Shown: piece after piece, positions 5,953-53,197 of the stretch | Layout of the letters: every line of letters starts with the position of its first letter | How positions within the stretch are numbered: position 1 is the stretch's first letter | IMG/VR virus record: IMGVR_UViG_3300037067_004861 | Reading direction: 5' to 3' (one strand) | Source: a virus | Lineage: Duplodnaviria; Heunggongvirae; Uroviricota; Caudoviricetes | DNA length: 64,000 bases | Position numbers and translations under genes: made by a program | The notes under the pieces: model-generated | The model's input: the letters and a program-made list of their open reading frames with translations, nothing else | Told to the model about the DNA's origin: nothing | The model's database searches: none

Positions 5953-6106
5953 AAACTGTCTCGGCGTTCCAATAGTTTCCGCTATAACCTTCGTAATAAC
6001 GATACAGAATCGTTACAAACTGCAGCCACCACCATTTACCATCTAAATACAGTGGTAAGAACAGGAACTTATCCCTGATTTTAATATCACCGTCTTTGTA
6101 TTTCAT
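5936..6106 (-). CDS. Small hypothetical protein (56 aa), paralog of 5696..5872
   Basis: Manual translation MKYKDGDIKIRDKFLFLPLYLDGKWWWLQF... Confidence 0.4.
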   Translation of the reverse strand: MKYKDGDIKIRDKFLFLPLYLDGKWWWLQFVTILYRYYEGYSGNYWNAETVLRFKV

Positions 6107-13897: not shown

Positions 13898-13909
13898 GGT
13901 TTTAATACC

Positions 13910-14227: not shown

Positions 14228-14240
14228 AGTTTTAATCCTA

Positions 14241-17069: not shown

Positions 17070-18137
17070 TCATTCTTCACCCCGGATTCTCCAAAACCTG
17101 GCTTCCTTTGGAATGCCGTCGTCACTTAGCTCTCGATACTTGAACTCAATCGTCGTACCTCGCGGATACAAGGGATGGGTGACGTATTCCGGAGCCACCA
17201 CACCAGGGAAGTCCACAGCGAGTCTTGTATAGTCAGGATTGTTGAAGGCACGTTGCTGGTGAGTGAATCCTGAGAGCTTCAATTTCTTGCCATTAAAATC
17301 AATTATCAAGGCCCCCATTAGTCCTAGTAACTGACCGGTTTTACCTTCTTCACCAAAAGTATATCCCGTGACAACGCCGTCAGCGGTGTCCCATGGCTTG
17401 TACTTTAACAGATTATGACTGCGTTCCGGGAGCCATTGACTCTCGGGTCGCCGCAGCATTACACCTTCACCCCCGGCTTCTAAGTAACCATTAAGATAGT
17501 TCTCCATCTCCTCGACTGCTTGAAGATGCTTAACGGCTAAACGCATTTGTGGAACCAAGGAAATAACACCACCAGGAAATAATGCTGACTTTTTTGAGAG
17601 CCATTGAAGCGTTGTCTCGAAACCCCAAGAAACGGAACTACCCTTGACTCCTCGCTCTTTCGCCCAAGGCAAGGCGTTTACCACTCGGAAAGAGTAGTCA
17701 TTTCTGATCTTAATATCACGACTCCGAAAGACGATTTCCGGGGACGGTGAGTCGAAGACCCTGTAGCCAACGCCCTGCCAATCGGCGTCGTTAGGCTCGA
17801 AATTGGCGATAGTCTTCCGGAGTGTTTGGAATCCTCGGATACCACCGTATAGCTCTCCATCTAACGTGATATCCGGTAGGTTATCAAGCCACCACTCTGG
17901 GGCGTGAATAACCTTGCCTGTTCGACTCCATAGCCCGGTAGCGATTACCTCGTCTACTAGACGACTGTCTTTGTAAGTATTGGCGTAAGGCACTTGTTCC
18001 GCAGGGACTCCGCGGCTGATCCCGCCATCCCAAAAGCATCGGGTGCCGTCGAGCTTCTCGGAGAGAAACCACCCTCCGATATTATTTTTACCTGGATTGA
18101 ACGTATGGGCCAACATTAGGTATTCACTTTTCGCCAT
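17070..18137 (-). CDS. ATP-dependent DNA ligase (compact, Chlorella-virus/T7-like); an RNA ligase cannot be excluded
   Basis: Motif I KLDGTR, III LDGEL, IV EGVMLR, V LLKYK. Confidence 0.6.
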   Translation of the reverse strand: MAKSEYLMLAHTFNPGKNNIGGWFLSEKLDGTRCFWDGGISRGVPAEQVPYANTYKDSRLVDEVIATGLWSRTGKVIHAPEWWLDNLPDITLDGELYGGIRGFQTLRKTIANFEPNDADWQGVGYRVFDSPSPEIVFRSRDIKIRNDYSFRVVNALPWAKERGVKGSSVSWGFETTLQWLSKKSALFPGGVISLVPQMRLAVKHLQAVEEMENYLNGYLEAGGEGVMLRRPESQWLPERSHNLLKYKPWDTADGVVTGYTFGEEGKTGQLLGLMGALIIDFNGKKLKLSGFTHQQRAFNNPDYTRLAVDFPGVVAPEYVTHPLYPRGTTIEFKYRELSDDGIPKEARFWRIRGEE

Positions 18138-18354
18138 AGTTAGCCTCGAAAACTTCTCTCATATTGGTTGTATAGGAAAGTACAACTTTTACCCAATAAG
18201 ATTGAGTATCACGATCAAAGAACCATCTATTTTTCTTACAATCTAAAATACGCTTTAGATAGAGAGGCTTAGAATTCACAGGAACTAGAAAATACTGCCT
18301 ATTCTCTTCAGAAATAGTATTTAAGGAATCCAACCACTTCGTGAATTTACTCAT
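18124..18354 (-). CDS. Hypothetical protein, paralog of 18347..18523 (MSKF.eWLDSL.TI.E)
   Basis: ORF track. Confidence 0.4.
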   Translation of the reverse strand: MSKFTKWLDSLNTISEENRQYFLVPVNSKPLYLKRILDCKKNRWFFDRDTQSYWVKVVLSYTTNMREVFEANYGEK

Positions 18355-18523
18355 TGCTCACCCAATATGATTGTGTGTCACTATCATAGAACCATTTATT
18401 ATCAGGGCAGTTTAAAACCATTTTCCGGAAGAATGGATTAGAGGTTGCTGGTATTTGGAGATAACTCTTACCATTCTCGATAATAGTATCTAGGGAGTCC
18501 AACCACTCGGAGAATTTACTCAT
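18347..18523 (-). CDS. Small hypothetical protein (58 aa), paralog of 18124..18354
   Basis: Manual translation MSKFSEWLDSLDTIIENGKSYLQIPATSNPFFRKMVLNCPDNKWFYDSDTQSYWVSNE. Confidence 0.35.
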   Translation of the reverse strand: MSKFSEWLDSLDTIIENGKSYLQIPATSNPFFRKMVLNCPDNKWFYDSDTQSYWVSNE

Positions 18524-19551: not shown

Positions 19552-19835
19552 GAAACTTCACATTCGATATAAGTAGCCACTGGAGACGGGATAATATGAT
19601 TGTATTGATTACAGAATTGCTCAACGGCGAAACGATGATTCTCTTCCATGGTCATGTCATCGTTATAGTGTGTAACCACGTACCTATTACCTAGACCGGT
19701 GGCAATGATTTTAGCATCAAAGGTTGGGGTTGGCGGTCGGTATACAGTTCTGAGTTCAAACATCCTCGACTCCACAGATAGTGCAGAAACGATATGGTAT
19801 TTCGTAAATCCCGTAGTATACTTGTCCCCAAACAT
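19536..19835 (-). CDS. Hypothetical protein
   Basis: ORF track. Confidence 0.4.
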   Translation of the reverse strand: MFGDKYTTGFTKYHIVSALSVESRMFELRTVYRPPTPTFDAKIIATGLGNRYVVTHYNDDMTMEENHRFAVEQFCNQYNHIIPSPVATYIECEVSWVVK

Positions 19836-20076
19836 GTGGGCATCGTTTTATTAGGTGGTGCTGCTCTTTCCGCAATTCTCTTAACTGATTATTGTAATTT
19901 ACTTTAACCTCATCTATTTGGAGACGTATACTACGCAGCCTTTTCTTAATAGTCTCTGGTTTTAAAGTCTTTTTATTATTCATTTTGTTATTATTCATTT
20001 TATTATTATTCATTTTATTACCCACAATGCACCTCACAGTCCCCACAGATAGCACAATAGGTGTATTCTGCATCAA
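19756..20076 (-). CDS. Hypothetical protein, 3-gene paralog family (KTLKPETI.rRi..L...; C-terminal RC.H...CxICG zinc finger); N-terminal MNNNK repeats come from a 15-bp DNA repeat
   Basis: Aligned with 20018..20245 and 20254..20547. Confidence 0.45.
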   Translation of the reverse strand: MMQNTPIVLSVGTVRCIVGNKMNNNKMNNNKMNNKKTLKPETIKKRLRSIRLQIDEVKVNYNNQLRELRKEQHHLIKRCPHVWGQVYYGIYEIPYRFCTICGVEDV

Positions 20077-20245
20077 TGAATTTAATAGTTTTTAGAATGT
20101 GATTGCATCGTTGCTGTATCGCTGTGATTTCCATCTCAAGATCATTGTCGACTTTATGGTAGGCTTCTTTGGCTAGGTATCTTTGCTGTTGTAATTCCTT
20201 GATACGTCGACTAATAGTCTCTGGCTTTAACATATTATTTTTCAC
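20018..20245 (-). CDS. Hypothetical protein, paralog family member
   Basis: See 19756..20076. Confidence 0.45.
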   Translation of the reverse strand: MKNNMLKPETISRRIKELQQQRYLAKEAYHKVDNDLEMEITAIQQRCNHILKTIKFIDAEYTYCAICGDCEVHCG

Positions 20246-26707: not shown

Positions 26708-27394
26708 TTATACCTCTGCCAGAACTTCAAATTCCTTGCAACGCCACTTATCCCCGGCCCTATGGATATCTGTCTTCTTCGTCCTAACCTTGATAATGGG
26801 GCCACGAGAATTGGTGTTTGACTCTTGAAATTTCAAGACCATGGCAACCGTAGGGTAAAGATAGAGGCCAGGATGGCATTCGGTCTTGCAGGTGGAGAAA
26901 TATGGAGCCTTTACTTTATCTCCAACACTATAGCTACCACTATTCAAACGCCTTTTAGAGCGATAACCGATAATATAATCACCATCCTCCTTGAATCCTC
27001 TGTAATCTGTGTTTAATGTGTTCCTGGGATCAAGAGCAGTATGGTTGATGTTGGCCTCAGTGAGATTAATATCATAGAGGTCCGTTTCTTGCAGATAGGC
27101 TCCTTGGAGATTGGCTCCATGGAGGTTAGCTTCCCATAGATATGCGTATAGGAGATTAGTACCTTGGAGATTGGCCCCTGGGAACTGGGACTGCATTAGT
27201 ACAGCTCCTTGGAGATTGGCTCCTTGAAGATTGGCTCCTTGGAGATTGGCTCTTCGGAGATCGGCTTCTCGAAGATTGGCGCCTCGGAGATCGGCTTCCC
27301 GGAGATCGGCCTCATAGAGATTAGCTCTTTCTCCACCTTCTCTATCTTGTAGCCAAAGACTATGCTTTTCCAGGGCGACTTTAATATCAATCAT
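26708..27394 (-). CDS. Pentapeptide-repeat protein with a conserved unrecognised C-terminal domain (paralog 1 of 3)
   Basis: A(D/N)LxxA(N/D)L repeats; C-terminal DYRGFKEDGDYIIGYRSKRRL...TECHPGLYLYPT...KWRCKEFEVLAE is shared with 27408..28148 and 28599..29399. Confidence 0.7.
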   Translation of the reverse strand: MIDIKVALEKHSLWLQDREGGERANLYEADLREADLRGANLREADLRRANLQGANLQGANLQGAVLMQSQFPGANLQGTNLLYAYLWEANLHGANLQGAYLQETDLYDINLTEANINHTALDPRNTLNTDYRGFKEDGDYIIGYRSKRRLNSGSYSVGDKVKAPYFSTCKTECHPGLYLYPTVAMVLKFQESNTNSRGPIIKVRTKKTDIHRAGDKWRCKEFEVLAEV

Positions 27395-27407: not shown

Positions 27408-28148
27408 TTATTCATACTCTGCCAGAACTTCAAACTCCTTGCAACGCCACTTCTTACCAGCCTTATGAATATCTGTCTTCTTCGTTCTTACCACAATTAT
27501 AGGGCCCCAAGAATTGGGATTTCCTCTTTGAAAGTTCAATACCATCTCTATTGTAGGGTAGAGATAAAGGCCCGGATGGCATTCTGTCGTACAGGTGGAG
27601 AAGTAAGGGGCTTTTACTTTCTCTCCGATACTGTAGTGACCACTATTCAAACGCCTTTTCGTCCGGTATCCGATAATATAATCACCATCCTCCTTGAAGC
27701 CTTTATATTCCATATTCAAGGTATTTCTTGGGTCCAGAACAGTACCGGTGATCCTGGCCCTGGTGAGATTAGTTCCGTAGAGGTCAGTTTCCTGTAAACA
27801 GGCTCCTTGGAGATTGGCTTCAGAGAGGTCAGCTCCCGATAGATGTGCGTATAGGAGATTTGCCCATTGAAGGTTGTTTTCTCGAAGGTTGGCCTGCATT
27901 AAGTAGGCTCCGCTGAGTGAGGCTCCTTTGAAATTAGCTACTTGAAGATCGGCCCCATGGAATGTAGCATAGGAAAGATTAGCATATTGTAGGTTGGCAC
28001 CACGTAGGTCGGCTTTGGTGAGATCAGCATTTTGAAGGTCAGCTTCGCGGAGATCGGCTCCTAGGAAATTTGCTCGCTCTCCGTCCGGATCACCGTGAAG
28101 CCACTTCCTATGGGAATCTAGAATGCCTTTAATAGTGATATCAATCAT
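27408..28148 (-). CDS. Pentapeptide-repeat protein with the same C-terminal domain (paralog 2 of 3)
   Basis: See 26708..27394. Confidence 0.7.
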   Translation of the reverse strand: MIDITIKGILDSHRKWLHGDPDGERANFLGADLREADLQNADLTKADLRGANLQYANLSYATFHGADLQVANFKGASLSGAYLMQANLRENNLQWANLLYAHLSGADLSEANLQGACLQETDLYGTNLTRARITGTVLDPRNTLNMEYKGFKEDGDYIIGYRTKRRLNSGHYSIGEKVKAPYFSTCTTECHPGLYLYPTIEMVLNFQRGNPNSWGPIIVVRTKKTDIHKAGKKWRCKEFEVLAEYE

Positions 28149-28151
28149 AAT

Positions 28152-28493
28152 TTAACCTTTAAAATCAATTACACCGTACTCAGAGTTGGTGATAGTGTAA
28201 TAGCAACGTCGGACGCCAACCATTTGCATAAATGATCGGCAGGTCCGACAGGGTGTCGCATTAGCGTAGTCACCATTCTTTAGGACACGGACGACATAAA
28301 CAATAGAACCCTTATCCAACTTCCTGCACAATCGGGCTTCGGCATGAGCCTGCGGTTCCGGATATCGGCAAGGCAGATTAGTTGATTTTACTATCGTTCC
28401 ATCGGCCCTAAGTCCCACGGCTCCGATACAATATCTCCTGATATCATTCTTTTTGATAGCAATACGTTCGGCTAATCGGAACATGCGTTTCAT
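28152..28493 (-). CDS. Cytidine/deoxycytidylate deaminase-fold zinc enzyme (CDA, dCMP-deaminase or TadA-like; 113 aa)
   Basis: Zinc-binding motifs HAE and PCxxC (HAEARL...ATPCRTCRSF). Confidence 0.6.
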   Translation of the reverse strand: MKRMFRLAERIAIKKNDIRRYCIGAVGLRADGTIVKSTNLPCRYPEPQAHAEARLCRKLDKGSIVYVVRVLKNGDYANATPCRTCRSFMQMVGVRRCYYTITNSEYGVIDFKG

Positions 28494-28598: not shown

Positions 28599-29399
28599 TT
28601 AGTATTCTGTCTCGGACAGGACTTCAAACTCCTTGCAACGCCACTTGTCTCCCGCCCTATGAATATCCGTCTTCTTGGCTTTCACTTTAATGATAGGACC
28701 TGCTAGGGAGGTACTGTGGGTATACATAAAGTTTAATACCATTTGAACCGTGGGGTAGAGGTAAAGACCTGGATGGCATGGAGAAAAGCTAATAGAGAAG
28801 TAAGGTGACGTAACTTTCTCCCCGACTGTGTATTCCCCATCGTTCATAAGACGCCTTTTCGTCCTGTATCCGATAATATAATCACCGTCCTCCTCAAATC
28901 CTTTGTAGTCTCTATTAGGCGTATTACTTGGATTGAGACAAGTGCGGATGAGATCGGCTCCTTCTAGATCAGCCCCATAGAGGGCAGTCTCAGAGAGAGC
29001 AGCCCAACGGAGATCGGCTCTTTGGAGATGGGCATTTTGAAGGTCAGCTTCTCGGAGATCGGCTCCTTGGAGATTGGCTCCTTGGAGATCGGCTCCTTGG
29101 AGATTGGCGTAACATAGTTTTGCATGTTGTAGATTCGCTTTTTGGAGACAGGCATATTTAAGATTGGCTTCTCGGAGATCGGCTTCTTGTAGATTGGCTC
29201 CTTGGAGATTAGCGTGACATAGGGTGTTCCCTCTTAAACTAGCATAAGAGAGATTGACTCCTGGAAGATCGGACCCATTTAGAATGACTCCTTGGAAATT
29301 TGCTCTTTCTCCACCCTCTATATTCTTGAGCCAAAGACTGTGCTTTTCCACGGTGGTTTTAATATCAATCATTGTATTTCCTAAATTAGAGTTATCCAT
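28599..29399 (-). CDS. Pentapeptide-repeat protein with the same C-terminal domain (paralog 3 of 3)
   Basis: See 26708..27394. Confidence 0.7.
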   Translation of the reverse strand: MDNSNLGNTMIDIKTTVEKHSLWLKNIEGGERANFQGVILNGSDLPGVNLSYASLRGNTLCHANLQGANLQEADLREANLKYACLQKANLQHAKLCYANLQGADLQGANLQGADLREADLQNAHLQRADLRWAALSETALYGADLEGADLIRTCLNPSNTPNRDYKGFEEDGDYIIGYRTKRRLMNDGEYTVGEKVTSPYFSISFSPCHPGLYLYPTVQMVLNFMYTHSTSLAGPIIKVKAKKTDIHRAGDKWRCKEFEVLSETEY

Positions 29400-29614: not shown

Positions 29615-29652
29615 ATCATCGCATGGATCAAATATATGACCCATGCGATGAT
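29615..29652. promoter_or_regulatory. 12-bp-arm inverted repeat ATCATCGCATGG-13 nt-CCATGCGATGAT in AT-rich intergenic DNA; GATATTATTATCA motif follows directly
   Basis: Direct reading. Confidence 0.4.
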
Positions 29653-29974: not shown

Positions 29975-30439
29975 TCAAACTAAAACTAAATTGAACCTCC
30001 AGAATATTTGAATATTGATTTTACAATCATCTAGAGGGTAGATTCGTCCCTGTGGGTCATATATCTTCCCCTCTTCATGATTCCAGGCTACCGCGTGCCA
30101 ATAGGTCCGAGCCTTACCGCATAGGATACCATCACAACACTTCAAATGATTATGAAATCTATTCTCATCGAATTGGAGAACAAATTCATCATCTCCATAG
30201 ACAGTCTGGACCGGCCTTGGCTCTATGGGTGTTACCGCGAACCCACGAGCCAAAGCTATATCTATAATCTCTTGAGTATGGAATCCTTTTCTCTGGGCCG
30301 GTCCTTTGAGATCAGGATGAATAATCTCACTACCGTCGTGTCCTACTGTCGCTATTAACTCTTCTACCGCCACACCCATGACCATAGCAGCAGCGGTAAT
30401 ACTGCAAGACCAACTATTTGGTTGTTTTAGTAGAAGCAT
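29975..30439 (-). CDS. Papain-like cysteine peptidase (C39-like fold)
   Basis: NSWSCSITAAAMV (Cys box) and WHAVAWNHEEGKIYDPQG (His box). Confidence 0.45.
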   Translation of the reverse strand: MLLLKQPNSWSCSITAAAMVMGVAVEELIATVGHDGSEIIHPDLKGPAQRKGFHTQEIIDIALARGFAVTPIEPRPVQTVYGDDEFVLQFDENRFHNHLKCCDGILCGKARTYWHAVAWNHEEGKIYDPQGRIYPLDDCKINIQIFWRFNLVLV

Positions 30440-30462
30440 AGCTTATTTTAATCCTATTAGGA

Positions 30463-30942
30463 TTACTCTTCTTTAGTTTCCAGATCATCAATTGATAATT
30501 CAATCAGATTCGTCACATACTTATAAACGCTTTTCGGCACGTTACAGCCGATTACTGTGACATTAATCCCAAGATTACCCAGTTTCTTGTAGAGAGGTAT
30601 TAAATCGGGATTCGAGGAGCAAATGATTACATTATCAATTGAGTGATCGTTTACCCCGGTCAACACGTCCGTGGCTACCCCGACACCCCACGAGCATCGT
30701 TGAATCTTGCGATCTCCGATATTAAGAGTATAGGGCTTCTTGTATTTCGTAATGAAGCCCAACGACCGCAGATAGTGAATAAACGGTGAAGCCTCATTCT
30801 CGGATTGGCAACCATAAGCGATAGCCAGGGTTAGGTTCTCGCACCGTTCCTTCAAGAGAACATAGTTTAGTTTCCCTACTCCGAACTTCTTTTGTAGTTT
30901 GAAATAGAGATCACTGATATCAACATACAGACCGGTCTTCAT
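30463..30942 (-). CDS. NYN/LabA-like (PIN-fold) domain protein
   Basis: LYVDISDLYF ... VGVATDVL ... VIICSSNPDLIPLYKKLGNLGINVTVIG pattern. Confidence 0.45.
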   Translation of the reverse strand: MKTGLYVDISDLYFKLQKKFGVGKLNYVLLKERCENLTLAIAYGCQSENEASPFIHYLRSLGFITKYKKPYTLNIGDRKIQRCSWGVGVATDVLTGVNDHSIDNVIICSSNPDLIPLYKKLGNLGINVTVIGCNVPKSVYKYVTNLIELSIDDLETKEE

Positions 30943-31705
30943 TTCTTAATTCCTCTGCTATAGCTACTGAGTTTGAAGTGCCAATAATATCAGCACCGGC
31001 GTCAATGAAAAGTTTTAATTGCGAAGCCGTTTTAATACCACCGGCGGCCTTGATTTTAAAATCATCAGCCCTATTCCAGTGTCGGAGATTATCCCATAGT
31101 CTTACAGTTGGTAATGTGGCACCACTCTTACCCCACCCCGTTGAGGTCTTGATTGCATAGGCACCGCTATCATAAACTATATGCCAAGCATCCTCTAGTT
31201 CTGTTGTGGTTAGGAGACACTCTTCAACAATAATCTTAACTCTAACACCGTGGACATTAGCCTCATCGACTAACTCCGCTAAGTCTTCGGCTAAGAAACG
31301 TGGACGCCTATCCTTGAAATCTCCTATATTCCAAACTACATCGACTTCATTGGCCCCATCCCCGATTGCATCAGCTACCTCACGTAGTTTAGCCGTTTGG
31401 GTAGAATACCCAAGAGGGAAGCCAATAACTGTAGCAATAAGAAGATCATAATCACTATATCTTACTGCATAATCTACTTTGGTGGGTGGGATACATATCC
31501 CACGGAAACCATATTTCTTGCACTCATCAATGAGTCTATCAATATCCTTCTCTGTGGTATCCGGTCGTAGTAGAGTATGGTCAATTCTGTCAAGCATTCT
31601 GTTCTCCGAAGAAAAGTGATATTTCTTGTTCTGCATTCTCCGTGGATGCGTGGATGCAATTATACCGACACGGTAGTGTGGCAAAGTCATGTCGTATAAC
31701 AGCAA
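30920..31705 (-). CDS. deoC: Deoxyribose-phosphate aldolase (DeoC); likely true start at Met37 (about nt 31597), 4 nt after the ndk stop
   Basis: IDHTLLRP...CIPP...TVIGFPLGYSTQ...EVDVVWNIG...IKTSTGWG...IKAAGGIK are the DeoC class I aldolase motifs. Confidence 0.7.
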   Translation of the reverse strand: MLLYDMTLPHYRVGIIASTHPRRMQNKKYHFSSENRMLDRIDHTLLRPDTTEKDIDRLIDECKKYGFRGICIPPTKVDYAVRYSDYDLLIATVIGFPLGYSTQTAKLREVADAIGDGANEVDVVWNIGDFKDRRPRFLAEDLAELVDEANVHGVRVKIIVEECLLTTTELEDAWHIVYDSGAYAIKTSTGWGKSGATLPTVRLWDNLRHWNRADDFKIKAAGGIKTASQLKLFIDAGADIIGTSNSVAIAEELRNEDRSVC

Positions 31706-31979
31706 CTATCTCACGAACTGCGTATACCGCGTCCTCACCGACAACTACTAAGCCAAGTAATGGGGCGCTAAGCATAAAGATTTTATTATCATCATAAACC
31801 ATATCCCCATGTAATCGAAGATGTGGATACATCTTACCGTACCACTCATCATCTTTTTGGAGGAGAGCGGCACCTGTTATCCGCAGATACTTGTCCTCTA
31901 TTCTACTAATAATCCGCCCAATAAGACCACGCTCTTGGGCGTCTGGTTTTATAATCACTAGCGTTCGTTCGACTGACAT
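31590..31979 (-). CDS. ndk: Nucleoside diphosphate kinase
   Basis: TLVIIKPDAQERGLIGRIISRIE and NCIHASTENAEQEISLFF (active-site His). Confidence 0.7.
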   Translation of the reverse strand: MSVERTLVIIKPDAQERGLIGRIISRIEDKYLRITGAALLQKDDEWYGKMYPHLRLHGDMVYDDNKIFMLSAPLLGLVVVGEDAVYAVREIVAVIRHDFATLPCRYNCIHASTENAEQEISLFFGEQNA

Positions 31980-32548
31980 TTCTTTCTCTCTATATATTTT
32001 TGTATCAATTTTATAACATCAATAGCATCGTCGATAGCGTTGTGTTGGACTATGGGTGGCATTTCAGCTCTAAGTTGACACGTCTTCATATCCGGAACAA
32101 CATATCCATCTACTTCTTGGTTCCAGTATAACATACCGGGATCGAGGATTCGGTGTCTCCAGGCTATAATATCATTCCAACCGGGCATTTTCTCCAGGAA
32201 TCGTGCGTCGAAAGTCCCATAGTTCTTCCCAGCGATAGTTATTTTGTCCTTGCTTCCCAAGCCATTGTTTTCTAGGAAACCTCGGAATCGAGGAGCCAAC
32301 TCTTCTGGCTTCAAGTAGTGATGTGACCAGTTCGCGTCCTTCAATGCTATATGCTTTAGTATTGCGGAGTTCATCTGCAAGGCATATGTGTCACCGACTA
32401 CCGGCTCATTGATTATATAAGCAGCGAAGATTGGTAGGTCATCGAGATACTTACTGCCATCATAGATTACCGCACCGAACTCTAGTATTTGACAGTAATC
32501 TGGATTAAGACCAGTAGTCTCTAAGTCTATGCTAACGTAGTTTATCAT
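31958..32548 (-). CDS. DEDDh 3'-5' exonuclease (DnaQ/epsilon-like)
   Basis: Exo I SIDLETTGL; Exo III HNAIDDAIDV. Confidence 0.6.
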   Translation of the reverse strand: MINYVSIDLETTGLNPDYCQILEFGAVIYDGSKYLDDLPIFAAYIINEPVVGDTYALQMNSAILKHIALKDANWSHHYLKPEELAPRFRGFLENNGLGSKDKITIAGKNYGTFDARFLEKMPGWNDIIAWRHRILDPGMLYWNQEVDGYVVPDMKTCQLRAEMPPIVQHNAIDDAIDVIKLIQKYIERKKCQSNER

Positions 32549-32809
32549 TTATCTCTCAGCCGTTAAGAGGAGCCAAAGTGGGTCACTAGCTTCAACAATA
32601 TGGGCCAACCGCCCAGAGTCTTTCGCTGCATTCTCTACCCTATGCCTATTCGCAGCATGGAAGGGTAGGTTATATATGTGTTCGTTAGTCTTGAGTTTAT
32701 AATCAATTGTGGCCAACTCATAGCCTAAAACGAAACATTGGGGTTTAGAATAATCAACTAGCTCGTCGTTATCTATACAGAAGGATTTTATTAGTCTGAA
32801 GGATTTCAT
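32549..32809 (-). CDS. Hypothetical protein
   Basis: ORF track. Confidence 0.35.
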   Translation of the reverse strand: MKSFRLIKSFCIDNDELVDYSKPQCFVLGYELATIDYKLKTNEHIYNLPFHAANRHRVENAAKDSGRLAHIVEASDPLWLLLTAER

Positions 32810-33150
32810 TTATTCATATCCGGGATTTTTAGGAACTGATACCAATTCGGGTAGGTGAATAGCTTCTGATACTCTTTCTCCGTCGCCGCTGTTAATATCC
32901 ATATCCCTACCCCAGCAGCAGTCATTCTTGGGAACGTCTCTAGCTGCGCGGCAGTGAACCTATAGTGTTCTGGATTCTTAACCTCAACCCACCGACTACC
33001 GTAGCGTTTCTGGGCGATATAGAGATCAGGCATCCCCGTTTGGAATGTGGAGCCATGGATTACTTTAACAAACCAGTCCCGCTCTTTCAAGAATTTAATA
33101 AGGGCTAATTGAATCTTTGCTTCCGGCCCCTTCTTATGAATTACAGCCAT
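32806..33150 (-). CDS. VRR-NUC domain nuclease
   Basis: GMPDLYIAQKRYGSRWVEVK ... QLETF (PD-(D/E)XK of the VRR-NUC type). Confidence 0.5.
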   Translation of the reverse strand: MAVIHKKGPEAKIQLALIKFLKERDWFVKVIHGSTFQTGMPDLYIAQKRYGSRWVEVKNPEHYRFTAAQLETFPRMTAAGVGIWILTAATEKEYQKLFTYPNWYQFLKIPDMNK

Positions 33151-42082: not shown

Positions 42083-44389
42083 TTATTCTTTCTTTAGTTT
42101 CGACTTCAAATCCCCAAGAGTCAGAGATTGTAAATCCCTTTTCTGTTTAAGATTAGTTAGAACCAGTTCGTCCGTGGGGAGATGAATAAGATCAATAATA
42201 GTGGCTCCTCTATTCGTGTCCATTCCGATACGGTGGATTCGGTCTTCCGATTGGATACGTGATTCGCCATTAAAATCATTACTGTAATAGATAATAACGG
42301 GGGAGGCCGTTAGGGTTATACCCATCCCCGCCGCACCAGGTTGACCGATGAAAGCAATCCGTGGATACTTTTCCAGTTCGTCTTGGAAGTTGCTAAGCGG
42401 ATCACCGGGGATATTACTATGCCATCCACGCCCGTCAACCCTGATCCAGGCCCAACCATTGGCCTCACAAATCGCGACAATCCTGTCAACGCTGCCAGTG
42501 AAACCCCCATAGATGACAACTCGGCCAATCTCCATGTATTCATCGAGTAATTCGCACAATGCCTCTTCCTTTGGAGTCTCAATGAATTGAGCCGTGCGTT
42601 CGTGGACTTTCCGCGTCCCCTTACCGCCACAGCCATCACAATCCACATATTCGAGTTGATTTTGTAGATCAGTCTCGTTTGGCCGGGAATCCTCTGGCAG
42701 ATTGGCATTAAGCATCGGGTTCTTAATGGTGCCCTTGCCATTGCAAACAGGGCAGGTTTCCGTACCGACTTCTTTCTCAACATATTGGAAGCCATCGCTT
42801 AGTTCCCTCAATAATGTTAATCCCGCCACAACAGTATGGGATGTTTCAATGATAGTATTAGCAATATCAATGATAGACTGAGAGGGCGGGAGATTGATAA
42901 TTTTGTAGATTTTGTCAGGAAGGTCAATAAAATCCTTCTTGAACTGAACAAGAACCAACCCCTTCATACGCTCATGTAATTTGTAAACCTCGTTCTCCGA
43001 GGGCGTATATGGGTGGTCACAATCAGTGTGGTCATCATAGTAACCACCGCAGATGGAACACTTCTTTTCGTCATCAAGCCAAGAAACAATAGTTGGGTAA
43101 GCCTGCCCGAAAGCAGAGTCATTCTTTTTAATGATAGCTAAACGCTGCCTAAACTTATGGTAGTCGCCCTCTTTCAGGAAACCAGGACAAGCTATCTTGC
43201 ATTGTTGGAACCAGTCTGCCGGACTCTTTGGGGCAGGGGAACCAGTTAATAAGAGAATAAAAGCGGACTCTCCCCAGTAGTTTCTGACAATCTCTGCTAG
43301 TTCATAAGCAGCCACGGATCGTTGAGCCGTTGGGTTCTTTGTCCTAGATGATTCATCGAAGACAATACCCATTGGGATATCACAATCCCTAATGTGATTC
43401 TTACTGACTTTAACTAACTCATTGTAGGTTAATAGCCGTGGATTGATTTTACAATCCCAAACTTTGAACTCCCTGCTTACCCCTCTTAAAGCAGACCGTG
43501 GAGCAGCATACCACCAGTTAGGATTGCCAGACCGCTCCATTGCCTCGATCGTTGCCAAGGTTTTACCGCAGTTATGTACAACGATACCATTAGCAAGGAA
43601 ACTATGATATGGTTCTTCACAAACAATATCATAAACAGAGGAGTAACCAACTGGTTTCACAGATACAACGAAATCATAGTATAGTGTATGTTGGCTACTA
43701 TCATAGACATTCATACTTGTTCTTACTACATCACCAGGAACTAAATCCTTTGCTTCCTTGTATTCATCATAGTTAAAACTTATTTCATGGTCCGGTGTGA
43801 CACGCAGAACATATCCACGCTCGGTGGTTATTTCTACTACCTCCTTGAAACCCTTAAAAATTACGTCTTTAACATCAGCCTTGGCTCGTTTGCCTTGGCT
43901 GTCAAAAGTCCTAATTCTATATCTATTAGTATGGGCTTTCTGATGGAATAAGAAATTAAATTTCTCCAAAGTCCACTTAGCTACGTTAGTTTTATTTCCA
44001 CCAAAAATCTCTACTATCGCGGCTCCATCCACACACCCCATCTCACCAGCATAAACTACTTGCTTATAAGTAAGCATGAAGTCAGCGGCATAACGCTGAT
44101 TGATATACAACGGTCGGACATAATCATGTTGAATGATAGGCTTATCATATTTACCATAAACATCCACACCTTGAAGATATTTTAATCTAAAAGCATTATG
44201 ACTGGAGTTATTGATTCTCCATATCTTTCTTGGTGGGTCGTCATAACCACACCAGTGGGCACCATCCATAGATTTTATTTCAGCTATAAGTCCCTTATTA
44301 AAGGAGAATGTCACATAGATATAGTTGTCAACGTAATCTAATGACACTGGAAACTTATATTTACCAACCCTTAATTTAGTATTTATCAT
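42083..44389 (-). CDS. SNF2-family helicase/ATPase interrupted by a mini-intein in the Walker A motif
   Basis: N-extein ...AGEMG joins C-extein CGKTLATIE to give GEMGCGKT; DEAD-like FDES; LLLTGSPAPKS (SNF2 motif III); HRIGM (motif VI). Confidence 0.7.
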   Translation of the reverse strand: MINTKLRVGKYKFPVSLDYVDNYIYVTFSFNKGLIAEIKSMDGAHWCGYDDPPRKIWRINNSSHNAFRLKYLQGVDVYGKYDKPIIQHDYVRPLYINQRYAADFMLTYKQVVYAGEMGCVDGAAIVEIFGGNKTNVAKWTLEKFNFLFHQKAHTNRYRIRTFDSQGKRAKADVKDVIFKGFKEVVEITTERGYVLRVTPDHEISFNYDEYKEAKDLVPGDVVRTSMNVYDSSQHTLYYDFVVSVKPVGYSSVYDIVCEEPYHSFLANGIVVHNCGKTLATIEAMERSGNPNWWYAAPRSALRGVSREFKVWDCKINPRLLTYNELVKVSKNHIRDCDIPMGIVFDESSRTKNPTAQRSVAAYELAEIVRNYWGESAFILLLTGSPAPKSPADWFQQCKIACPGFLKEGDYHKFRQRLAIIKKNDSAFGQAYPTIVSWLDDEKKCSICGGYYDDHTDCDHPYTPSENEVYKLHERMKGLVLVQFKKDFIDLPDKIYKIINLPPSQSIIDIANTIIETSHTVVAGLTLLRELSDGFQYVEKEVGTETCPVCNGKGTIKNPMLNANLPEDSRPNETDLQNQLEYVDCDGCGGKGTRKVHERTAQFIETPKEEALCELLDEYMEIGRVVIYGGFTGSVDRIVAICEANGWAWIRVDGRGWHSNIPGDPLSNFQDELEKYPRIAFIGQPGAAGMGITLTASPVIIYYSNDFNGESRIQSEDRIHRIGMDTNRGATIIDLIHLPTDELVLTNLKQKRDLQSLTLGDLKSKLKKE
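43571..44035 (-). mobile_element. Mini-intein (about 155 aa, no endonuclease domain evident) within the SNF2 helicase P-loop
   Basis: Starts CVDGAAIVEIFGG (block A), TPDH (block B), ends FLANGIVVHN followed by Cys+1. Confidence 0.65.
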
Positions 44390-50017: not shown

Positions 50018-50223
50018 ACCTGCAAAAGATTATAGAATCATTGAATCAATCCCAGCGGGCTCAATTAATGACGGCTTTCAACCATCATTTTACACAGCGT
50101 GTTGTCTTTCCAGATAACACATTTATTGGAGTTAATATCGTGCCCGGTCCTGATATTTTAATCACCGAGCAAACAGGGTGTTGGTCCATTGGTAAAATTC
50201 TGAGGAGAAAGCCGTGTCAATAA
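50014..50223 (+). CDS. Hypothetical protein
   Basis: ORF track; 4-nt overlap with the primase gene. Confidence 0.35.
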   Translation: MNLQKIIESLNQSQRAQLMTAFNHHFTQRVVFPDNTFIGVNIVPGPDILITEQTGCWSIGKILRRKPCQ

Positions 50224-50777
50224 TCTTAGGTATTGGTTATAAAAAAGGGTCAGGGAAGAATACCCTTGGTAAATTAATAAACACATATCTCCAACGATGT
50301 TGTGGAAAATGTGTTACTAAACAGGTATCCTTTGCAGAGAAACTAAAGGATATTAGTTACCAACTCTATGGATGGGCTGGTTTGAAGCGTGGGATATACT
50401 ATGAAACCCATTATGACGAGAAAGAAGTAGAACTACCACAACTTGATTTAACTCCAAGAGACATATGGATTGGCGTTGGTAATGGAATGCGTGGAGTTTA
50501 TACTGACACATGGATTAACTATGCCTTACATGGTGTCAAGGCAAACGTGGTCTTAATAACAGATATGGGTTTCACTAATGAAGCCACTGCTATTAAGAAG
50601 GCAGGTGGTTTCACCTGTAAAATTACTAGAGAAGGAATCCCAAGGGGCATGGATGCCCGTGAGACAGAGTTAGATTCATGGACTAATTGGGATTTTAAAA
50701 TCAATAACAATGGTGGACTAAGTGATCTAAATCATCAGGCAGAAGCGATAGGTAATTTTATCTTGGAGAAGATATGA
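50214..50777 (+). CDS. P-loop kinase, T4 gp1-like deoxynucleoside monophosphate kinase candidate
   Basis: GIGYKKGSGKNTL P-loop at the N-terminus. Confidence 0.5.
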   Translation: MSIILGIGYKKGSGKNTLGKLINTYLQRCCGKCVTKQVSFAEKLKDISYQLYGWAGLKRGIYYETHYDEKEVELPQLDLTPRDIWIGVGNGMRGVYTDTWINYALHGVKANVVLITDMGFTNEATAIKKAGGFTCKITREGIPRGMDARETELDSWTNWDFKINNNGGLSDLNHQAEAIGNFILEKI

Positions 50778-50980
50778 TCGAGAATAGACAGAAATTCATT
50801 TTAGTGGGTGGTCCATTCACTAGTGATATCCACTATATTAAGAACCCACCCAAAAAGTATGTGGTTCCGATGCCTACGAATCCCCACTACTATTTTGCAG
50901 TTTATATTGTCACAAGAGAGTATACTCGACTTGGCGAACGCATAGCTATTTTCTCCCACTGTAAGAAGAGACAACAATGA
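50774..50980 (+). CDS. Hypothetical protein
   Basis: ORF track. Confidence 0.3.
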   Translation: MIENRQKFILVGGPFTSDIHYIKNPPKKYVVPMPTNPHYYFAVYIVTREYTRLGERIAIFSHCKKRQQ

Positions 50981-51537
50981 ACAGAAACCGATTAGCCTAC
51001 ACCCGTGGCTACCTATGTGGGGCCATGGATCGAGTCCAAGACGGGGGTATTGGATGGCGAAAAGATATTCAACGAGTCTTCAAGAACTATAAAATCCAAT
51101 GGATGGACCCGTCCAATAAGCCAATAGATATTGGTATTGAAGACTTAGAGAATAGAGCCTACCGGCGTAAATGCAAGGAAGCCGGTAGATATGATATGGT
51201 TCAAACTGATATGAAAATCATTCGTTGCGTTGATCTCCGGATGGTTGATATCAGTGACTTCATCGTTGTCAATCTCGATACATCTGTACACGCTTGCGGG
51301 ACTTATGAAGAGTTGACTTGGGCTAATCGTGGAAAGAAACCAATCATAATTAGAGTAGAGCAGGGTAAGTCCGATTGTCCAGATTGGATTCTAGGAACCA
51401 TACCACATGAGATGATCTTCTCGACATGGGCCGAGGTATACTCTTATCTCAAGCATGTTGCCAGAGACGATTATTTCGAGACTTTCCGGCGGTGGTGTTT
51501 CTTTGACTTCCATGGAGAAAAAGAATGCAGTACCTAG
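50977..51537 (+). CDS. Nucleoside 2-deoxyribosyltransferase / DNPH1(Rcl)-like N-glycosidase-fold protein
   Basis: GYLCGAMD ... VVNLDTSVHACGTYEELTWANRGKKPII matches the NDT-fold motifs. Confidence 0.45.
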   Translation: MNRNRLAYTRGYLCGAMDRVQDGGIGWRKDIQRVFKNYKIQWMDPSNKPIDIGIEDLENRAYRRKCKEAGRYDMVQTDMKIIRCVDLRMVDISDFIVVNLDTSVHACGTYEELTWANRGKKPIIIRVEQGKSDCPDWILGTIPHEMIFSTWAEVYSYLKHVARDDYFETFRRWCFFDFHGEKECST

Positions 51538-52208
51538 GAGGCAAGTCTGCTATAGGTCGAGAAATAGCAGAGATAATAAAATCATATGCCTTCATAGATC
51601 AAACGATTTATGAACCCTTCTGTGGGGCTGCTAATGTTACGCAATATCTAGCCCCGTATAAAGTCGAGGCATCAGATATCCATAAGTCATTGATACTGTG
51701 CCTGCAAGCAGTGCAACAGGGGTGGCTACCGCCAACCTCTGTGTCAGAACAAGAATACAAAAGACTCCAAAATCTCGTTAAAGAAGGTGAGGAGTCCGCC
51801 CTTCTAGGATTCGTTGGATTCGCGTGCTCTTGGGGCGGTAAATGGTTTGACGGATATGCTCGCGGGCATAATAGGAACTATGCTGAGGGGTGTCAACACT
51901 CTCTTCTTAAACGTATAAAGAAATGTACAACCACGACTTTCACACATAAGAACTACCGTAATCTCAAGCCCAGTAACTCAGTAGTTTATTGCGACCCGCC
52001 ATATCGAGGCACCACTGGTTATGGTGGTGTATGGTGCCCAGTCACATTCTGGGAGACAATGAGGCAATGGTCGAGAACTAATAAGGTGCTTATTTCAGAG
52101 TATACGGCACCTGATGATTTTAAAATCATAGCCTCATTCTCACACGATTCCATGGATGGTTTAGCCTCTAAAACAGTTACCGAACATTTATTTAAGTATG
52201 GTGGATAA
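51525..52208 (+). CDS. dam: DNA adenine methyltransferase (Dam/D12 class)
   Basis: YLGGKS...IYEPFCGAANV (motif I) and VYCDPPY (DPPY motif IV). Confidence 0.7.
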   Translation: MQYLGGKSAIGREIAEIIKSYAFIDQTIYEPFCGAANVTQYLAPYKVEASDIHKSLILCLQAVQQGWLPPTSVSEQEYKRLQNLVKEGEESALLGFVGFACSWGGKWFDGYARGHNRNYAEGCQHSLLKRIKKCTTTTFTHKNYRNLKPSNSVVYCDPPYRGTTGYGGVWCPVTFWETMRQWSRTNKVLISEYTAPDDFKIIASFSHDSMDGLASKTVTEHLFKYGG

Positions 52209-52537
52209 TGAAGATACTATTAAAAGCAATATCCTGGGAGTTCGTATCTAATCTAATTTGTTTCTATTTAGCCTTTCTTATGTTTGGTAACTTCTATAGT
52301 TGTTTGATTTTCACTATCATCTGTATAGTTGTTAAGATACTGCTTTTCTGTCTCCACGAATTGTTGTGGAAAAAGGATATTTCAACACGCCAAGTATATG
52401 ATTACTTGACAGATTGTTTCTGGGAAGTAGCCTCAAGACCCCATAATACTTGTTTCTTGGAACTGCGTTTTAATGTACGTTTCCTAGAGTTCTTATCCGA
52501 AGTGTCCCGGTGTATGGGGAAAAAGATAAATGGCTAG
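52208..52537 (+). CDS. Small membrane protein (holin-like topology, unverified)
   Basis: ORF track; two or three hydrophobic segments. Confidence 0.35.
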   Translation: MKILLKAISWEFVSNLICFYLAFLMFGNFYSCLIFTIICIVVKILLFCLHELLWKKDISTRQVYDYLTDCFWEVASRPHNTCFLELRFNVRFLEFLSEVSRCMGKKING

Positions 52538-53138
52538 ATCATCCAAATATCTCTTCGGTAATTTATTGTGTGCTGTAGACGTGGAGACAACAGGTTTGGT
52601 GGCCGGTTATAATGATATCTGGCAGGTGTGCGTATTACCACTAACAAGCGATTGCACGCCAGCAAAAGACTGTATGCCCTTCTACATGAATATGAAGGTT
52701 AGGTATCCAGATCATATTGAACCTAAAGCCATTAAATTAAGCAAAACGAAGTTTGCTATAAGTCAACAATCCGCGATAGACCCATGGTCTTGCGCAGATT
52801 TATTTGACGAATGGTTTCAGAAATTAAACCTACCTTTTGGAAAGAAGATTGTACCATTAGCACAGAACTGGCCTTTCGACAGGGCCTTCATACAAGAATG
52901 GTTAGGTATTGAAACCTTCGATCAGTTCTTCTCTCCGCACTACCGTGATACAATGGCTGCCGCTATTTTCCTAACGGATATAGCGGATTTAAAGCAAGAA
53001 CCACAGTTCTTTATGAGATTCAATCTAGGTACGTTATGTGCTAGATTGGGTGTCACTAATTTATGTGCCCATGACGCCCTACAGGATTGCCTTGCTACAG
53101 CGGAAGTCTATAATAGACTTTTACGTTGGGCGGCATAA
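52530..53138 (+). CDS. DEDDh 3'-5' exonuclease (second copy)
   Basis: Exo I AVDVETTGL; Exo III CAHDALQDCL. Confidence 0.55.
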   Translation: MARSSKYLFGNLLCAVDVETTGLVAGYNDIWQVCVLPLTSDCTPAKDCMPFYMNMKVRYPDHIEPKAIKLSKTKFAISQQSAIDPWSCADLFDEWFQKLNLPFGKKIVPLAQNWPFDRAFIQEWLGIETFDQFFSPHYRDTMAAAIFLTDIADLKQEPQFFMRFNLGTLCARLGVTNLCAHDALQDCLATAEVYNRLLRWAA

Positions 53139-53154
53139 CATAATCTAAAACACA

Positions 53155-53197
53155 AAAACCGTACATCAGAAATTCTGATGTACGGTCTTTTTATTTA
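53155..53197. terminator. Bidirectional rho-independent terminator (accgtacatcagaa-a-ttctgatgtacggt hairpin with T-runs on both strands)
   Basis: Direct reading; separates the converging plus-strand operon and the minus-strand tail module. Confidence 0.7.

Follow-up and report, generated by a model that had tools for sequence, protein, structure and literature searches.

A phage deoxyribose-phosphate aldolase and its NDT-fold partner: a possible pathway for deoxynucleotide disposal

What might a deoxyribose-phosphate aldolase (DeoC, or DERA) be doing in a phage? The gene lies in a 64,000-nucleotide stretch of phage DNA (the window), in a minus-strand block at 29975-32548 that a sequence-only reading had taken for an unusual nucleotide-metabolism set; it was suggested that DeoC and a nucleoside deoxyribosyltransferase (NDT)-like protein encoded elsewhere in the window could belong to a salvage route supplying or rerouting deoxyribose and deoxynucleotides, possibly for a non-canonical DNA base. 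Our own answer, to which we give a probability of about 0.55 as a whole, is that DeoC would be a working class I aldolase which, with the NDT-like enzyme, makes up a two-step branch for the disposal of deoxynucleoside monophosphates (dNMPs), that a dNMP kinase and a nucleoside diphosphate kinase (NDK) make up a competing branch, and that DeoC and three of its neighbours (Exo1, NDK and NYN) are co-transcribed accessory genes inserted between two core genes, one for a 114-residue nuclease-like protein and one for a C39-like peptidase.

Five genes and a variable slot

All five genes of the block are present, arranged head to tail with mostly overlapping stop and start codons, and profile matches and motifs agree with the identities first proposed for them (DEDDh exonuclease, NDK, DeoC, NYN protein and papain-like protease). 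The DEDDh 3'-5' exonuclease Exo1 (31958..32548, minus strand) matches Pfam RNase_T at 1.5e-7 (32.6 bits against a cut-off of 24), phrog_192 at 2.7e-15 and the PolC exonuclease domain 2p1j in the PDB at 4.9e-5, and its D-E-D-H-D motifs are readable in DLETTG, FDARF and HNAIDD. NDK (31590..31979, minus strand) matches Pfam NDK at 1.3e-22 (80.6 bits, cut-off 27) and falls below the NCBIfam equivalog level (83 bits against a cut-off of 155); it keeps the catalytic His, with NCIHAS aligned to NIIHGS of solved NDKs, as well as Lys, Arg and Asn residues, and has lost about 10 residues of the Kpn loop, so that the full-length loop of solved NDKs is absent. This deletion is graded among relatives, the form of about 10 residues being specific to the nearest ones. 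Downstream of DeoC come an accessory NYN-domain (PIN-like) nuclease (30463..30942, minus strand; Pfam NYN 4.2e-13, 50.5 bits, cut-off 24.2), with Asp8, Asp11 and Asp113 invariant among three orthologs, those in loci L005 and L008 being about 50% identical, and the C39-like cysteine peptidase (29975..30439, minus strand), in which the papain-like fold and the Cys/His (Asp) catalytic set are present and for which Pfam and NCBIfam gave no match. A terminator-like hairpin with a 16-bp stem (29615..29652, minus strand) closes the unit.

Do these five neighbours form one metabolic set, as had been supposed? They do not: the C39-like peptidase belongs to the core of the lineage, a large and widespread group of PolA phages, and has no link to nucleotides, and the variable slot next to it is where the accessory genes for NYN, NDK and the exonuclease sit. 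The upstream boundary of that slot is the 114-residue nuclease-like gene (32806..33150, minus strand; phrog_93 endonuclease 8.8e-6, phrog_5702 resolvase 1.7e-5), which is found in 70 of 78 related loci and normally stands directly before the C39-like gene. What lies between the two in relatives may be nothing, NYN alone, NDK with NYN, or ribonucleotide reductase (RNR) with NYN, and in the fullest form RNR, a deaminase, ThyX, NDK, DeoC and NYN; the NYN gene itself occurs in 25 of the 78 loci, usually directly upstream of the C39-like gene. Exo1 and an 86-residue gene were seen in this phage only among the relatives examined, the four loci with Exo1 (L001-L004) being one and the same phage. Phages whose proteins are only about 50% identical share the order NDK-DeoC-NYN-peptidase, with stop codons that overlap the next start, and NDK stands directly upstream of DeoC in every phage with a DeoC of the window's type (group A) whose upstream flank can be read.

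A word on how these comparisons were made. Searched as nucleotides among deposited phages, the region gave zero matches, and PolA matches at only 25% identity, so no cultured relative is available for comparison. In scans of viral contigs, queries with single proteins (DeoC, primase) found nothing and alignment-based scans were needed. For Pfam, the open reading frames of 28 kb were concatenated with Gly-Ser linkers, and spurious Serglycin matches on the linkers were disregarded. Gene absences refer to the 64-kb window, roughly 21 kb of the phage genome lying outside it.

DeoC and the NDT-like gene

The aldolase gene (30920..31597, minus strand; 225 residues) begins not at the TTG at 31705 but at the ATG at 31597, a start that is also called on public contigs and that overlaps the NDK stop codon (ATGCTTGA). 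Its product scores 191.1 bits on the TIGR00126 deoC equivalog model, above the cut-off of 117.3, matches solved DERAs at 1e-40, and shares with these and with bacterial DeoCs the Schiff-base Lys of IKTSTG and, for the proton relay, the Asp of EVDVV and the second Lys, in IKAAGG, all of which is consistent with a functional class I enzyme. The surprise first expressed at finding such a gene in a phage was justified, for only 22 of 50,697 deposited phage records match it; two of the 22 are bacterial Salmonella contigs, and short unannotated records named after Listeria, Staphylococcus and Enterococcus look bacterial too. The window's type of DeoC is a separate clade, 33% identical to the type found next to NDT-like genes and 42% to sampled bacterial DERAs; its nearest neighbours are ordinary bacterial DERAs, including one at 45% identity on a contig encoding Spo0A, which we take to mark Firmicutes. 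Other lineages have, near the NDT-like gene, a divergent 'DeoC-like' cluster that was not counted as DERA because neither catalytic lysine is present.

The proposed partner, a putative dNMP N-glycosidase of the NDT/DNPH1 superfamily (50977..51537, plus strand), has the flavodoxin-like alpha/beta fold of that superfamily and belongs to a family with 2,447 matches. All of 42 sequences have Tyr12, Asp86 and Glu112, which correspond to the catalytic Tyr, the Asp/Asn and the Glu nucleophile of the superfamily; a local and weak alignment (hhalign E = 0.15) places Asp86 and Glu112 on Asp80 and Glu104 of DNPH1, and Glu112 aligns with the BlsM motif, again weakly (E = 0.62). Ala106 (Ala or Thr in relatives) aligns, in these same weak alignments, with Ser98 of DNPH1 and a Ser of BlsM, both of them nucleotide hydrolases. 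At the equivalent position nucleoside transferases have an Asp that binds the 5'-OH, and a small uncharged residue in its place accommodates a 5'-phosphate (PMC12884076). This one residue position, taken with the gene context, suggests that the enzyme would act on nucleotides rather than nucleosides. Long NDT-like reading frames in two loci (L022, L039) were considered as domain fusions and discarded, the extension resembling, by eye, an HNH-type homing endonuclease.

Two genes upstream of the NDT-like gene is a deoxynucleoside monophosphate kinase (50214..50777, plus strand; phrog_139 1.4e-29), and the order kinase, small reading frame, NDT-like gene recurs in L249, the sole other group-A phage with a readable kinase region, in keeping with the earlier grouping of the two genes. 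Downstream follow a D12-class N6-adenine DNA methyltransferase (51525..52208, plus strand; Pfam MethyltransfD12 4.5e-15), which in the window phage separates the NDT-like gene from a DUF2061 gene for a small membrane protein with two predicted transmembrane helices (52208..52537, plus strand; Pfam DUF2061 1e-7). A DUF2061 gene adjoins the NDT-like gene in 22 of 80 NDT-like loci, its usual position being directly downstream, and in one case (P0358) the two domains are joined in a single fusion protein. The final gene of the operon encodes a second DEDDh exonuclease, Exo2 (52530..53138, plus strand; Pfam RNase_T 2e-7), which has a 58% identical ortholog in L249 and is only 19% identical to Exo1; a strong bidirectional terminator-like hairpin with a stem of 13-17 bp (53154..53190) ends the operon.

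Is there really a functional tie between DeoC and the NDT-like gene, as had been suspected? In relatives the two stand side by side far above chance, DeoC lying directly upstream of the NDT-like gene in 18 of 65 C39-centred, 26 of 80 NDT-centred and 32 of 80 DeoC-centred loci; these samples share contigs and so are not independent, and the frequencies come from these three, a helicase-centred lineage sample stopping short of the gene-pair region. The gaps are in many cases only -4 to +11 nt, a DUF2061 gene is usually next, the DeoC sequences concerned have diverged to 35% identity, and the link recurs in separate DeoC clades. In group A the NDT-like gene is found, in the same kinase operon, in both phages where this can be read (L011, L015 and L019 being left out). 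In the window itself 19 kb separate the two genes, which belong to different operons on opposite strands, and the pairing is far from universal: about half of the NDT-like loci have no DeoC within 10 kb, one relative has none in 30 of its 44 kb, and over the same 10-kb range an NDT-like gene is missing from about 45% of viral DeoC loci. The literature searched contained no description of a DeoC encoded by a phage, nor of the two genes as a pair.

Why might a phage take a deoxynucleotide apart?

We think that the NDT-like enzyme would cleave the N-glycosidic bond of a deoxynucleoside 5'-monophosphate, giving the free base and deoxyribose-5-phosphate, and that DeoC would split the latter into glyceraldehyde-3-phosphate and acetaldehyde, thereby preventing a build-up of sugar phosphate and drawing the first reaction onward. 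The dNMP kinase beside the NDT-like gene and the NDK beside DeoC would lead the same dNMPs, presumably derived from degraded host DNA, via dNDP to dNTP, so that the phage might govern both of their fates, keeping them or destroying them; the purpose may be the removal of one particular dNMP, surplus or damaged. It is the conserved partnership in relatives that makes breakdown of a deoxynucleotide to base and small sugars probable for this pair. Of the salvage route first envisaged, the link between DeoC and the NDT-like gene is supported, and as to direction the evidence favours breakdown over a supply of deoxyribose. Against disposal it has to be said that there is no clear reason why phages, temperate ones included, should destroy deoxynucleotides. 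One conceivable reason, correction of a G+C mismatch between host and phage, was set aside because prophage copies in Planctomycetota contigs have a G+C content of about 0.6, which we assume to be close to that of their hosts.

What else could these genes be for? DeoC might act alone, as an auxiliary metabolic gene that, with nucleoside phosphorylases and phosphopentomutase of the host, draws carbon and energy from the deoxyribose of degraded host DNA, and the NDT-like gene of the window phage would then be unrelated to it. The closeness of the window's DeoC to ordinary bacterial DERAs, its distance from the NDT-like gene and the many viral DeoC loci with no such gene nearby all fit that idea, which we nevertheless consider rather improbable: no phosphorylase or phosphopentomutase gene accompanies DeoC in the phages examined, the NDT-like gene co-occurs in both group-A phages that can be checked, and in the other clade the two genes adjoin each other very often, given how rare either family is among viral contigs. 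We give similarly little credence to the view that the block has no shared function and is a mosaic of accessory genes gained independently at a recombination hot spot; the cargo between the 114-residue gene and the C39-like gene does differ from relative to relative, and Exo1 and the 86-residue gene are peculiar to this phage, but a gene order and codon overlaps kept at about 50% protein identity, and a DeoC/NDT-like link that recurs in separate clades, speak against chance assembly. The pathway might also run backwards, DERA building deoxyribose-5-phosphate, the NDT-like enzyme adding a base to give a dNMP, and kinase and NDK completing a supply of dNTPs independent of RNR. All four enzymes are encoded in the window, where neither RNR nor thymidylate synthase is found, and DERA is reversible by established enzymology; we regard the idea as very improbable all the same, since making an N-glycosidic bond from free sugar phosphate and base is thermodynamically strongly unfavourable, no such activity of the NDT family is reported in the literature examined, and RNR and ThyX are encoded as well in relatives that have all four genes, from which it follows that the set does not replace RNR.

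There is also the suggestion of a non-canonical base. The NDT-like enzyme might take the deoxyribose-5-phosphate of a canonical dNMP and transfer it, as DmtZ does, to a free base of an unusual kind, with dNMP kinase and NDK lifting the product to the triphosphate and DeoC clearing the sugar phosphate left by a hydrolytic side reaction, so that one base in the DNA would be replaced. DmtZ, an NDT-family dAMP hydrolase and deoxyribose-5-phosphate transferase that releases deoxyribose-5-phosphate, is a phage precedent for such chemistry; it comes from Z-genome phages of the PurZ0 type, Gordonia phage Ghobes and Arthrobacter phage Wayne (PMC12884076). NDT genes are statistically associated with dZ phages, two diverged phages have the kinase next to the NDT-like gene, NDK adjoins DeoC, Asp or Glu18 of the NDT-like family stands six positions past the catalytic Tyr as Asp12 of DmtZ does past Tyr6, and in other lineages the NDT-like gene is flanked by a dUTPase gene, as dmtZ is by dutZ, or by a GT1 glycosyltransferase gene. 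We still hold this to be unlikely. The 64-kb window contains no PurZ, QueC, QueD, QueE, FolE, DpdA, Dut homolog, thymidylate-synthase-like gene, RNR, ThyX, hydroxymethylase or glycosyltransferase; the NDT-like protein, searched by tblastn in the 50,697 phage records, matched just one uncultured megaphage and a Halorubrum virus, and no Gordonia or Arthrobacter phage in spite of the DmtZ carried by Ghobes and Wayne; the two DNA methyltransferases of the phage belong to classes acting on ordinary adenine or cytosine; and relatives with the same genes also encode the canonical supply enzymes RNR, dCMP deaminase and ThyX. Two particular routes are not supported, a Z-genome, since all twelve reading frames of at least 300 residues were scanned and zero adenylosuccinate-synthetase homologs appeared, and a 7-deazaguanine pathway, since the radical SAM protein (11690-12478), in spite of a QueE-like PHROG match at 1.4e-4, is generic and MoaA-like and far under every curated cut-off. 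That protein, the CDA-fold deaminase (28152-28493) and the dNMP kinase had all been named before and are all in the window; a place for the first two in the salvage route is not supported: the radical SAM gene has zero homologs in any related locus, and the deaminase (5 loci in all, 2 of them the window phage itself) is kept in 3 relatives only, never adjoining DeoC or the NDT-like gene. With no direct pointer to it in the window, synthesis of a non-canonical base is possible but unsupported.

Implications and known systems

If the disposal reading holds, why should it matter? Phages are known to reshape nucleotide pools either at the triphosphate level (dUTPase, DatZ, MazZ) or by removing the phosphate from dNMPs. 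In several phage lineages an NDT-fold family other than that of DmtZ, and far larger, is linked genetically to a true DERA, and the coupling suggests that full demolition of a deoxynucleotide, to base, triose phosphate and acetaldehyde, is a recurrent phage strategy. If the substrate proved to be a single dNMP, canonical or modified, phages with unusual DNA chemistry or with a sanitised pool for salvage would be marked out by the gene pair, and the family would offer new nucleotide-specific glycosidases, possibly phosphodeoxyribosyltransferases, for biocatalysis. A bolder proposal, which we regard as a long shot, is that DeoC, the NDT-like enzyme, the DUF2061 protein, dNMP kinase and NDK constitute a widespread and undescribed phage system that edits the pool of deoxynucleotides while they are monophosphates, selectively destroying one canonical dNMP or exchanging its base as DmtZ does; many uncultivated phages, Planctomycetota prophages included, would then have a replaced or excluded DNA base and need no synthetase of the PurZ type.

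How does all this compare with what is known? Two of the smaller likenesses concern the neighbours. The C39 domains of bacteriocin ABC transporters (PCAT1, ComA) resemble the phage peptidase, which is a free-standing protein lacking a transporter domain. The Mimivirus NDK (PDB 2b8p, 2b8q), also viral and with a short Kpn loop, ranks with the best solved matches to that of the window, and its deletion is smaller than the 10 or so residues lost here; a short Kpn loop is linked to altered deoxynucleotide preference in NDK.

Mammalian DNPH1 (Rcl) followed by DERA catabolises hmdUMP and other dNMPs. Similarity to DNPH1 is marginal (that same E of 0.15), a Ser stands where the NDT-like family has Ala or Thr, and the two genes are unlinked in animals, whereas in related phages DeoC and the NDT-like gene form an operon. 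MilB and BlsM, CMP and hydroxymethyl-CMP N-glycosidases of nucleoside-antibiotic pathways, have ribonucleotide substrates; they are about 15% identical to the NDT-like protein, and their product, ribose-5-phosphate, is unusable by DeoC.

The closest characterised relative of the NDT-like protein is DmtZ. Each is encoded by a phage, belongs to the NDT superfamily, has a Tyr/Asp(Asn)/Glu triad and has its gene among others for nucleotide-pool enzymes. A gene of the dUTPase family precedes the NDT-like gene in some other lineages, just as dutZ precedes dmtZ, and DmtZ does, as the NDT-like enzyme may, release deoxyribose-5-phosphate from dNMPs. Phage cleavage of the N-glycosidic bond of a dNMP was first reported in 2026, for this very enzyme in Z-genome phages, and the in vitro assay used E. 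coli DeoC as the coupling enzyme (PMC12884076). The partners differ, being DeoC and DUF2061 here, neither of them reported for DmtZ, and the window has neither PurZ nor DutZ. The bacterial deo operon (deoC-deoA-deoB-deoD), finally, contains a DeoC of the same equivalog family and with the same catalytic residues as the phage enzyme; its route passes through nucleosides, a phosphorylase and phosphopentomutase, none of the enzymes for which is encoded beside the phage DeoC, whose partner would instead yield deoxyribose-5-phosphate straight from the nucleotide.

A composite five-gene block

The five genes at 29975-32548 that the sequence-only reading had picked out as an unusual nucleotide-metabolism set for a phage are real, all on the minus strand and tightly packed: the genes for Exo1 and NDK overlap by 22 nt, those for NDK and DeoC by 8 nt and those for DeoC and the NYN nuclease by 23 nt, a 23-nt gap then precedes the peptidase gene, and a terminator-like hairpin with a 16-bp stem (29615-29652) lies 3' of the block. 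Exo1 is a DEDDh exonuclease, and the NYN gene has a clear Pfam match. DeoC, the deoxyribose-phosphate aldolase (DERA), starts at the ATG at 31597, which gives 225 aa and is the start called by gene callers on public contigs; its score against the deoC equivalog model is 191 bits (cut-off 117), solved DERAs match it at 1e-40, and the Asp, Schiff-base Lys and second Lys of the catalytic site are all retained. NDK (Pfam, 1.3e-22) keeps its catalytic His, and its Kpn loop is shorter by about 10 residues; the deletion comes in graded sizes among the closest relatives and is not seen in remoter ones. The loop is of full length in the related loci L005 and L012, 3 residues shorter in L015, 6 in L011 and 10 in the window, with catalytic residues conserved throughout this series.

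As one set, however, the five neighbours do not hold together, and the block is better seen as a core peptidase gene joined to variable cargo. Phage-sized contigs yielded >336 members of the 154-aa peptidase family, and the peptidase gene is a core gene of a large lineage, since across the 65 IMG/VR loci found with this family it normally sits directly 3' of a homolog of the 114-aa nuclease (32806-33150 in the window), downstream of the polymerase. The slot between nuclease and peptidase may hold nothing, NYN alone, NDK with NYN, or a class II RNR with NYN, and in its fullest form carries RNR, dCMP deaminase, ThyX, NDK, DeoC and NYN. The order NDK-DeoC-NYN-peptidase is repeated in phages that share only 40-57% protein identity with the window; among the related loci examined, Exo1 and an 86-aa gene are found in the window phage only.

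Linkage of DeoC with the NDT-like gene

The proposed tie between DeoC and the NDT-fold protein encoded far away at 50977-51537 (+) is upheld by adjacency in relatives, tested from both sides. The 65 peptidase-centred loci include DeoCs of a second type (30-36% identity to the window's), encoded just upstream of NDT-like homologs that are 41-64% identical to the window protein, often with intergenic gaps of -4 to +11 nt. In 80 viral loci centred on the NDT-like gene, DeoC occurs within 10 kb in 30 and no more than 400 bp upstream in 26, and a gene for the small membrane protein DUF2061 directly follows the NDT-like gene in 22; conversely, 41 of 80 DeoC-centred viral loci have an NDT-like gene within 10 kb (directly downstream in 32), the DeoC-, NDT-like- and peptidase-centred samples having contigs in common and so not being independent. 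Scans of a 2.9-million-contig collection returned roughly a hundred confirmed stretches for each family, and because both are this rare the adjacency is far beyond chance. One database protein fuses the NDT-like domain to DUF2061.

The NDT-adjacent DeoCs diverge from one another down to 35% identity, and their catalytic residues are intact in all. Window-type DeoC forms a separate clade, 42% identical to sampled bacterial DERAs (a sample biased towards relatives of the window protein) versus 33% to the NDT-adjacent type, which fits a second acquisition or a replacement. In L249, the one other phage with window-type DeoC whose distal region was read, the NDT-like protein is 45% identical to the window's and its operon has the same order: primase, small ORFs, dNMP kinase (50214-50777 in the window, rightly recognised in the sequence-only reading), a small ORF and the NDT-like gene, then the second DEDDh exonuclease, Exo2, and a terminator. 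L249 also carries an HNH endonuclease between the NDT-like gene and Exo2, and in two further loci (L039, 17882-19465; L022, 16164-17267) the NDT-like ORF is extended by ~170 aa that by eye resemble an HNH-type homing endonuclease.

The phage, its relatives and their hosts

The window, at 64 kb, covers most of the genome of one uncultivated tailed phage, about 21 kb of which lies outside it, and encodes a tape-measure protein, a family A DNA polymerase, an intein-bearing SNF2 helicase, a DUF5906 primase-helicase, an ATP-dependent ligase, ParB, two DNA methyltransferases and four tRNAs. A nucleotide comparison with 50,697 deposited phage records gave no match, and none of them has a polymerase more than 25% identical to that of the window; the same phage is present in four public metagenome assemblies, on contigs of up to 85 kb, and a helicase search found at least 480 relatives of the lineage. 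The intein in the helicase gene (42083-44389, -) matches PF14890 at 1.1e-10, and the L249 primase (2120-5764) exceeds the window's by 300 aa, which would fit a further intein-like insertion. Three pentapeptide-repeat paralogs with a common conserved non-repeat C-terminal domain (26708-27394, 27408-28148 and 28599-29399, -) flank the small CDA-fold deaminase gene and a tRNA-Ile gene, and runs of adjoining small paralogous ORFs without an assigned function lie at 5696-6106, 13544-14546, 18124-18523 and 19756-20245 (-). There are also four near-perfect tandem arrays, a 15-mer repeated 16 times (66-303), the heptamer GGTGTCC 10.6 times (4099-4172), an 18-mer 4 times (4220-4293) and the heptamer CTTAAAC 10.9 times (5879-5954), in or beside positions 1-4000, where G+C is 0.50-0.54 against ~0.42 elsewhere; as the phage encodes ParB, these could be iterons, origin elements or partition sites.

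Only nine MAG loci among 185,579 species genomes, mostly Planctomycetota, carry the NDT-like family, and they have the same lineage genes with the DeoC, NDT-like and DUF2061 trio at ~0.6 G+C. One of them, on a 1.07-Mb Planctomycetaceae chromosome contig (L167, CAWBLA010000006.1, 8001-9907), has a frameshifted copy of the DeoC and NDT-like region, its NDT-like gene and the gene after it being split over several frames; this copy looks like a decaying prophage and suggests that part of the lineage has Planctomycetota hosts. With a G+C of 0.42, the window phage itself is likely to have another host.

A predicted dNMP N-glycosidase branch and its parallels

Tyr12, Asp86 and Glu112 are invariant in 42 members of the NDT-like family. 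A local profile alignment with human DNPH1, whose query sequence was checked against PDB entries, pairs Asp86 with Asp80, Glu112 with the nucleophile Glu104 and Ala106 with Ser98, albeit weakly (E = 0.15), and the only solved-structure sequence match, the CMP hydrolase BlsM (E = 0.62), aligns at this motif and has Ser at the Ala106 position. In nucleoside transferases the 5' pocket holds an Asp or Asn that binds the 5'-OH, while nucleotide hydrolases have small uncharged residues there that leave space for a phosphate (PMC12884076). Ala or Thr at position 106, together with an operon partner that acts only on deoxyribose-5-phosphate, points to a putative dNMP N-glycosidase, which may hydrolyse its substrate or transfer the sugar phosphate.

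We think that the system is best described, on sequence grounds, as a probable phage dNMP N-glycosidase branch to which a DERA of its own has been added, and we found no report of such a branch in the literature searched. Host DNA, presumably degraded by the phage's several nucleases, would supply dNMPs, some of which would be kept, passing through dNMP kinase and then NDK to dNTPs, and others destroyed, the NDT-like enzyme splitting them into base and deoxyribose-5-phosphate and DeoC turning the latter into glyceraldehyde-3-phosphate and acetaldehyde. Such a branch could serve to clear a single dNMP, whether canonical, surplus, damaged or epigenetically modified, or to harvest carbon. In deoC mutants of enteric bacteria the build-up of deoxyribose-5-phosphate is harmful, and the same harm would explain why a DERA accompanies the glycosidase.

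The original suggestion was instead that DeoC, the NDT-fold protein, the kinase, a CDA-fold deaminase (28152-28493) and a radical SAM protein (11690-12478) could form a salvage route, possibly making a non-canonical DNA base. Those genes are all present, yet we consider base replacement improbable: no enzyme able to make an unusual base was found in the 64-kb window, which also has no RNR, ThyX, dUTPase or GMP reductase. The radical SAM protein is of a generic kind, with homologs in none of the related loci, and the deaminase persists in just 3 relatives (5 loci, of which 2 belong to the window phage itself) and never adjoins DeoC or the NDT-like gene. Relatives sharing the DeoC, NDT-like, kinase and NDK genes also encode RNR, dCMP deaminase and ThyX, which argues against both an RNR-independent synthetic pathway and thymine exclusion. 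The observation and the gene calls have been borne out, and the interpretation only in part.

Among cultured-phage proteins the NDT-like family shows detectable sequence similarity only to those of one megaphage and a Halorubrum virus. Other lineages place a dUTPase (9 loci), GT1 glycosyltransferase (26 loci) or IMPDH/GMP-reductase family gene (25 loci) beside the NDT-like gene, the last hinting at a connection with purines; an IMPDH/GMP-reductase gene occurs within 10 kb in 25 of the 80 NDT-like-centred loci, in many cases 0.5-1.3 kb downstream (L079, L106, L109, L116-L119, L162 and L163 among them). In another group of loci (L133, L136, L138, L141-L146, L148, L157 and L158) the NDT-like gene is followed at ~1.7 kb by one for a DeoC-like protein that has lost the two catalytic lysines (IIPSS instead of VKTST), often with dUTPase directly upstream and GT1 nearby; this may be a different pathway, perhaps of base modification. 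Jumbo-phage contigs of 61-298 kb (L259, 8799-16446; also L254, L261 and L271) carry NDK, DeoC, clamp-loader genes and then, ~5 kb from NDK and DeoC, an NT5C-type 5'-deoxynucleotidase gene that overlaps, stop to start, a distant NDT-like gene; here the theme would be played out at the level of nucleosides. As dUTPase, IMPDH/GMP-reductase, GT1 and NT5C neighbours recur across lineages, NDT-fold enzymes embedded in nucleotide-pool editing are a broad theme.

Of the characterised systems, the closest is DmtZ, from PurZ0-type Z-genome phages; this member of the NDT family hydrolyses dAMP and is also able to pass deoxyribose-5-phosphate on to 2-aminoadenine, and its gene adjoins that for the dUTPase-like DutZ (PMC12884076); a preprint has independently associated NDT genes with dZ phages. 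The window, in contrast, has no PurZ or dUTPase homolog, and DeoC and DUF2061, the conserved partners here, are absent from the description of DmtZ, where E. coli DeoC served merely as an assay reagent (PMC12884076).
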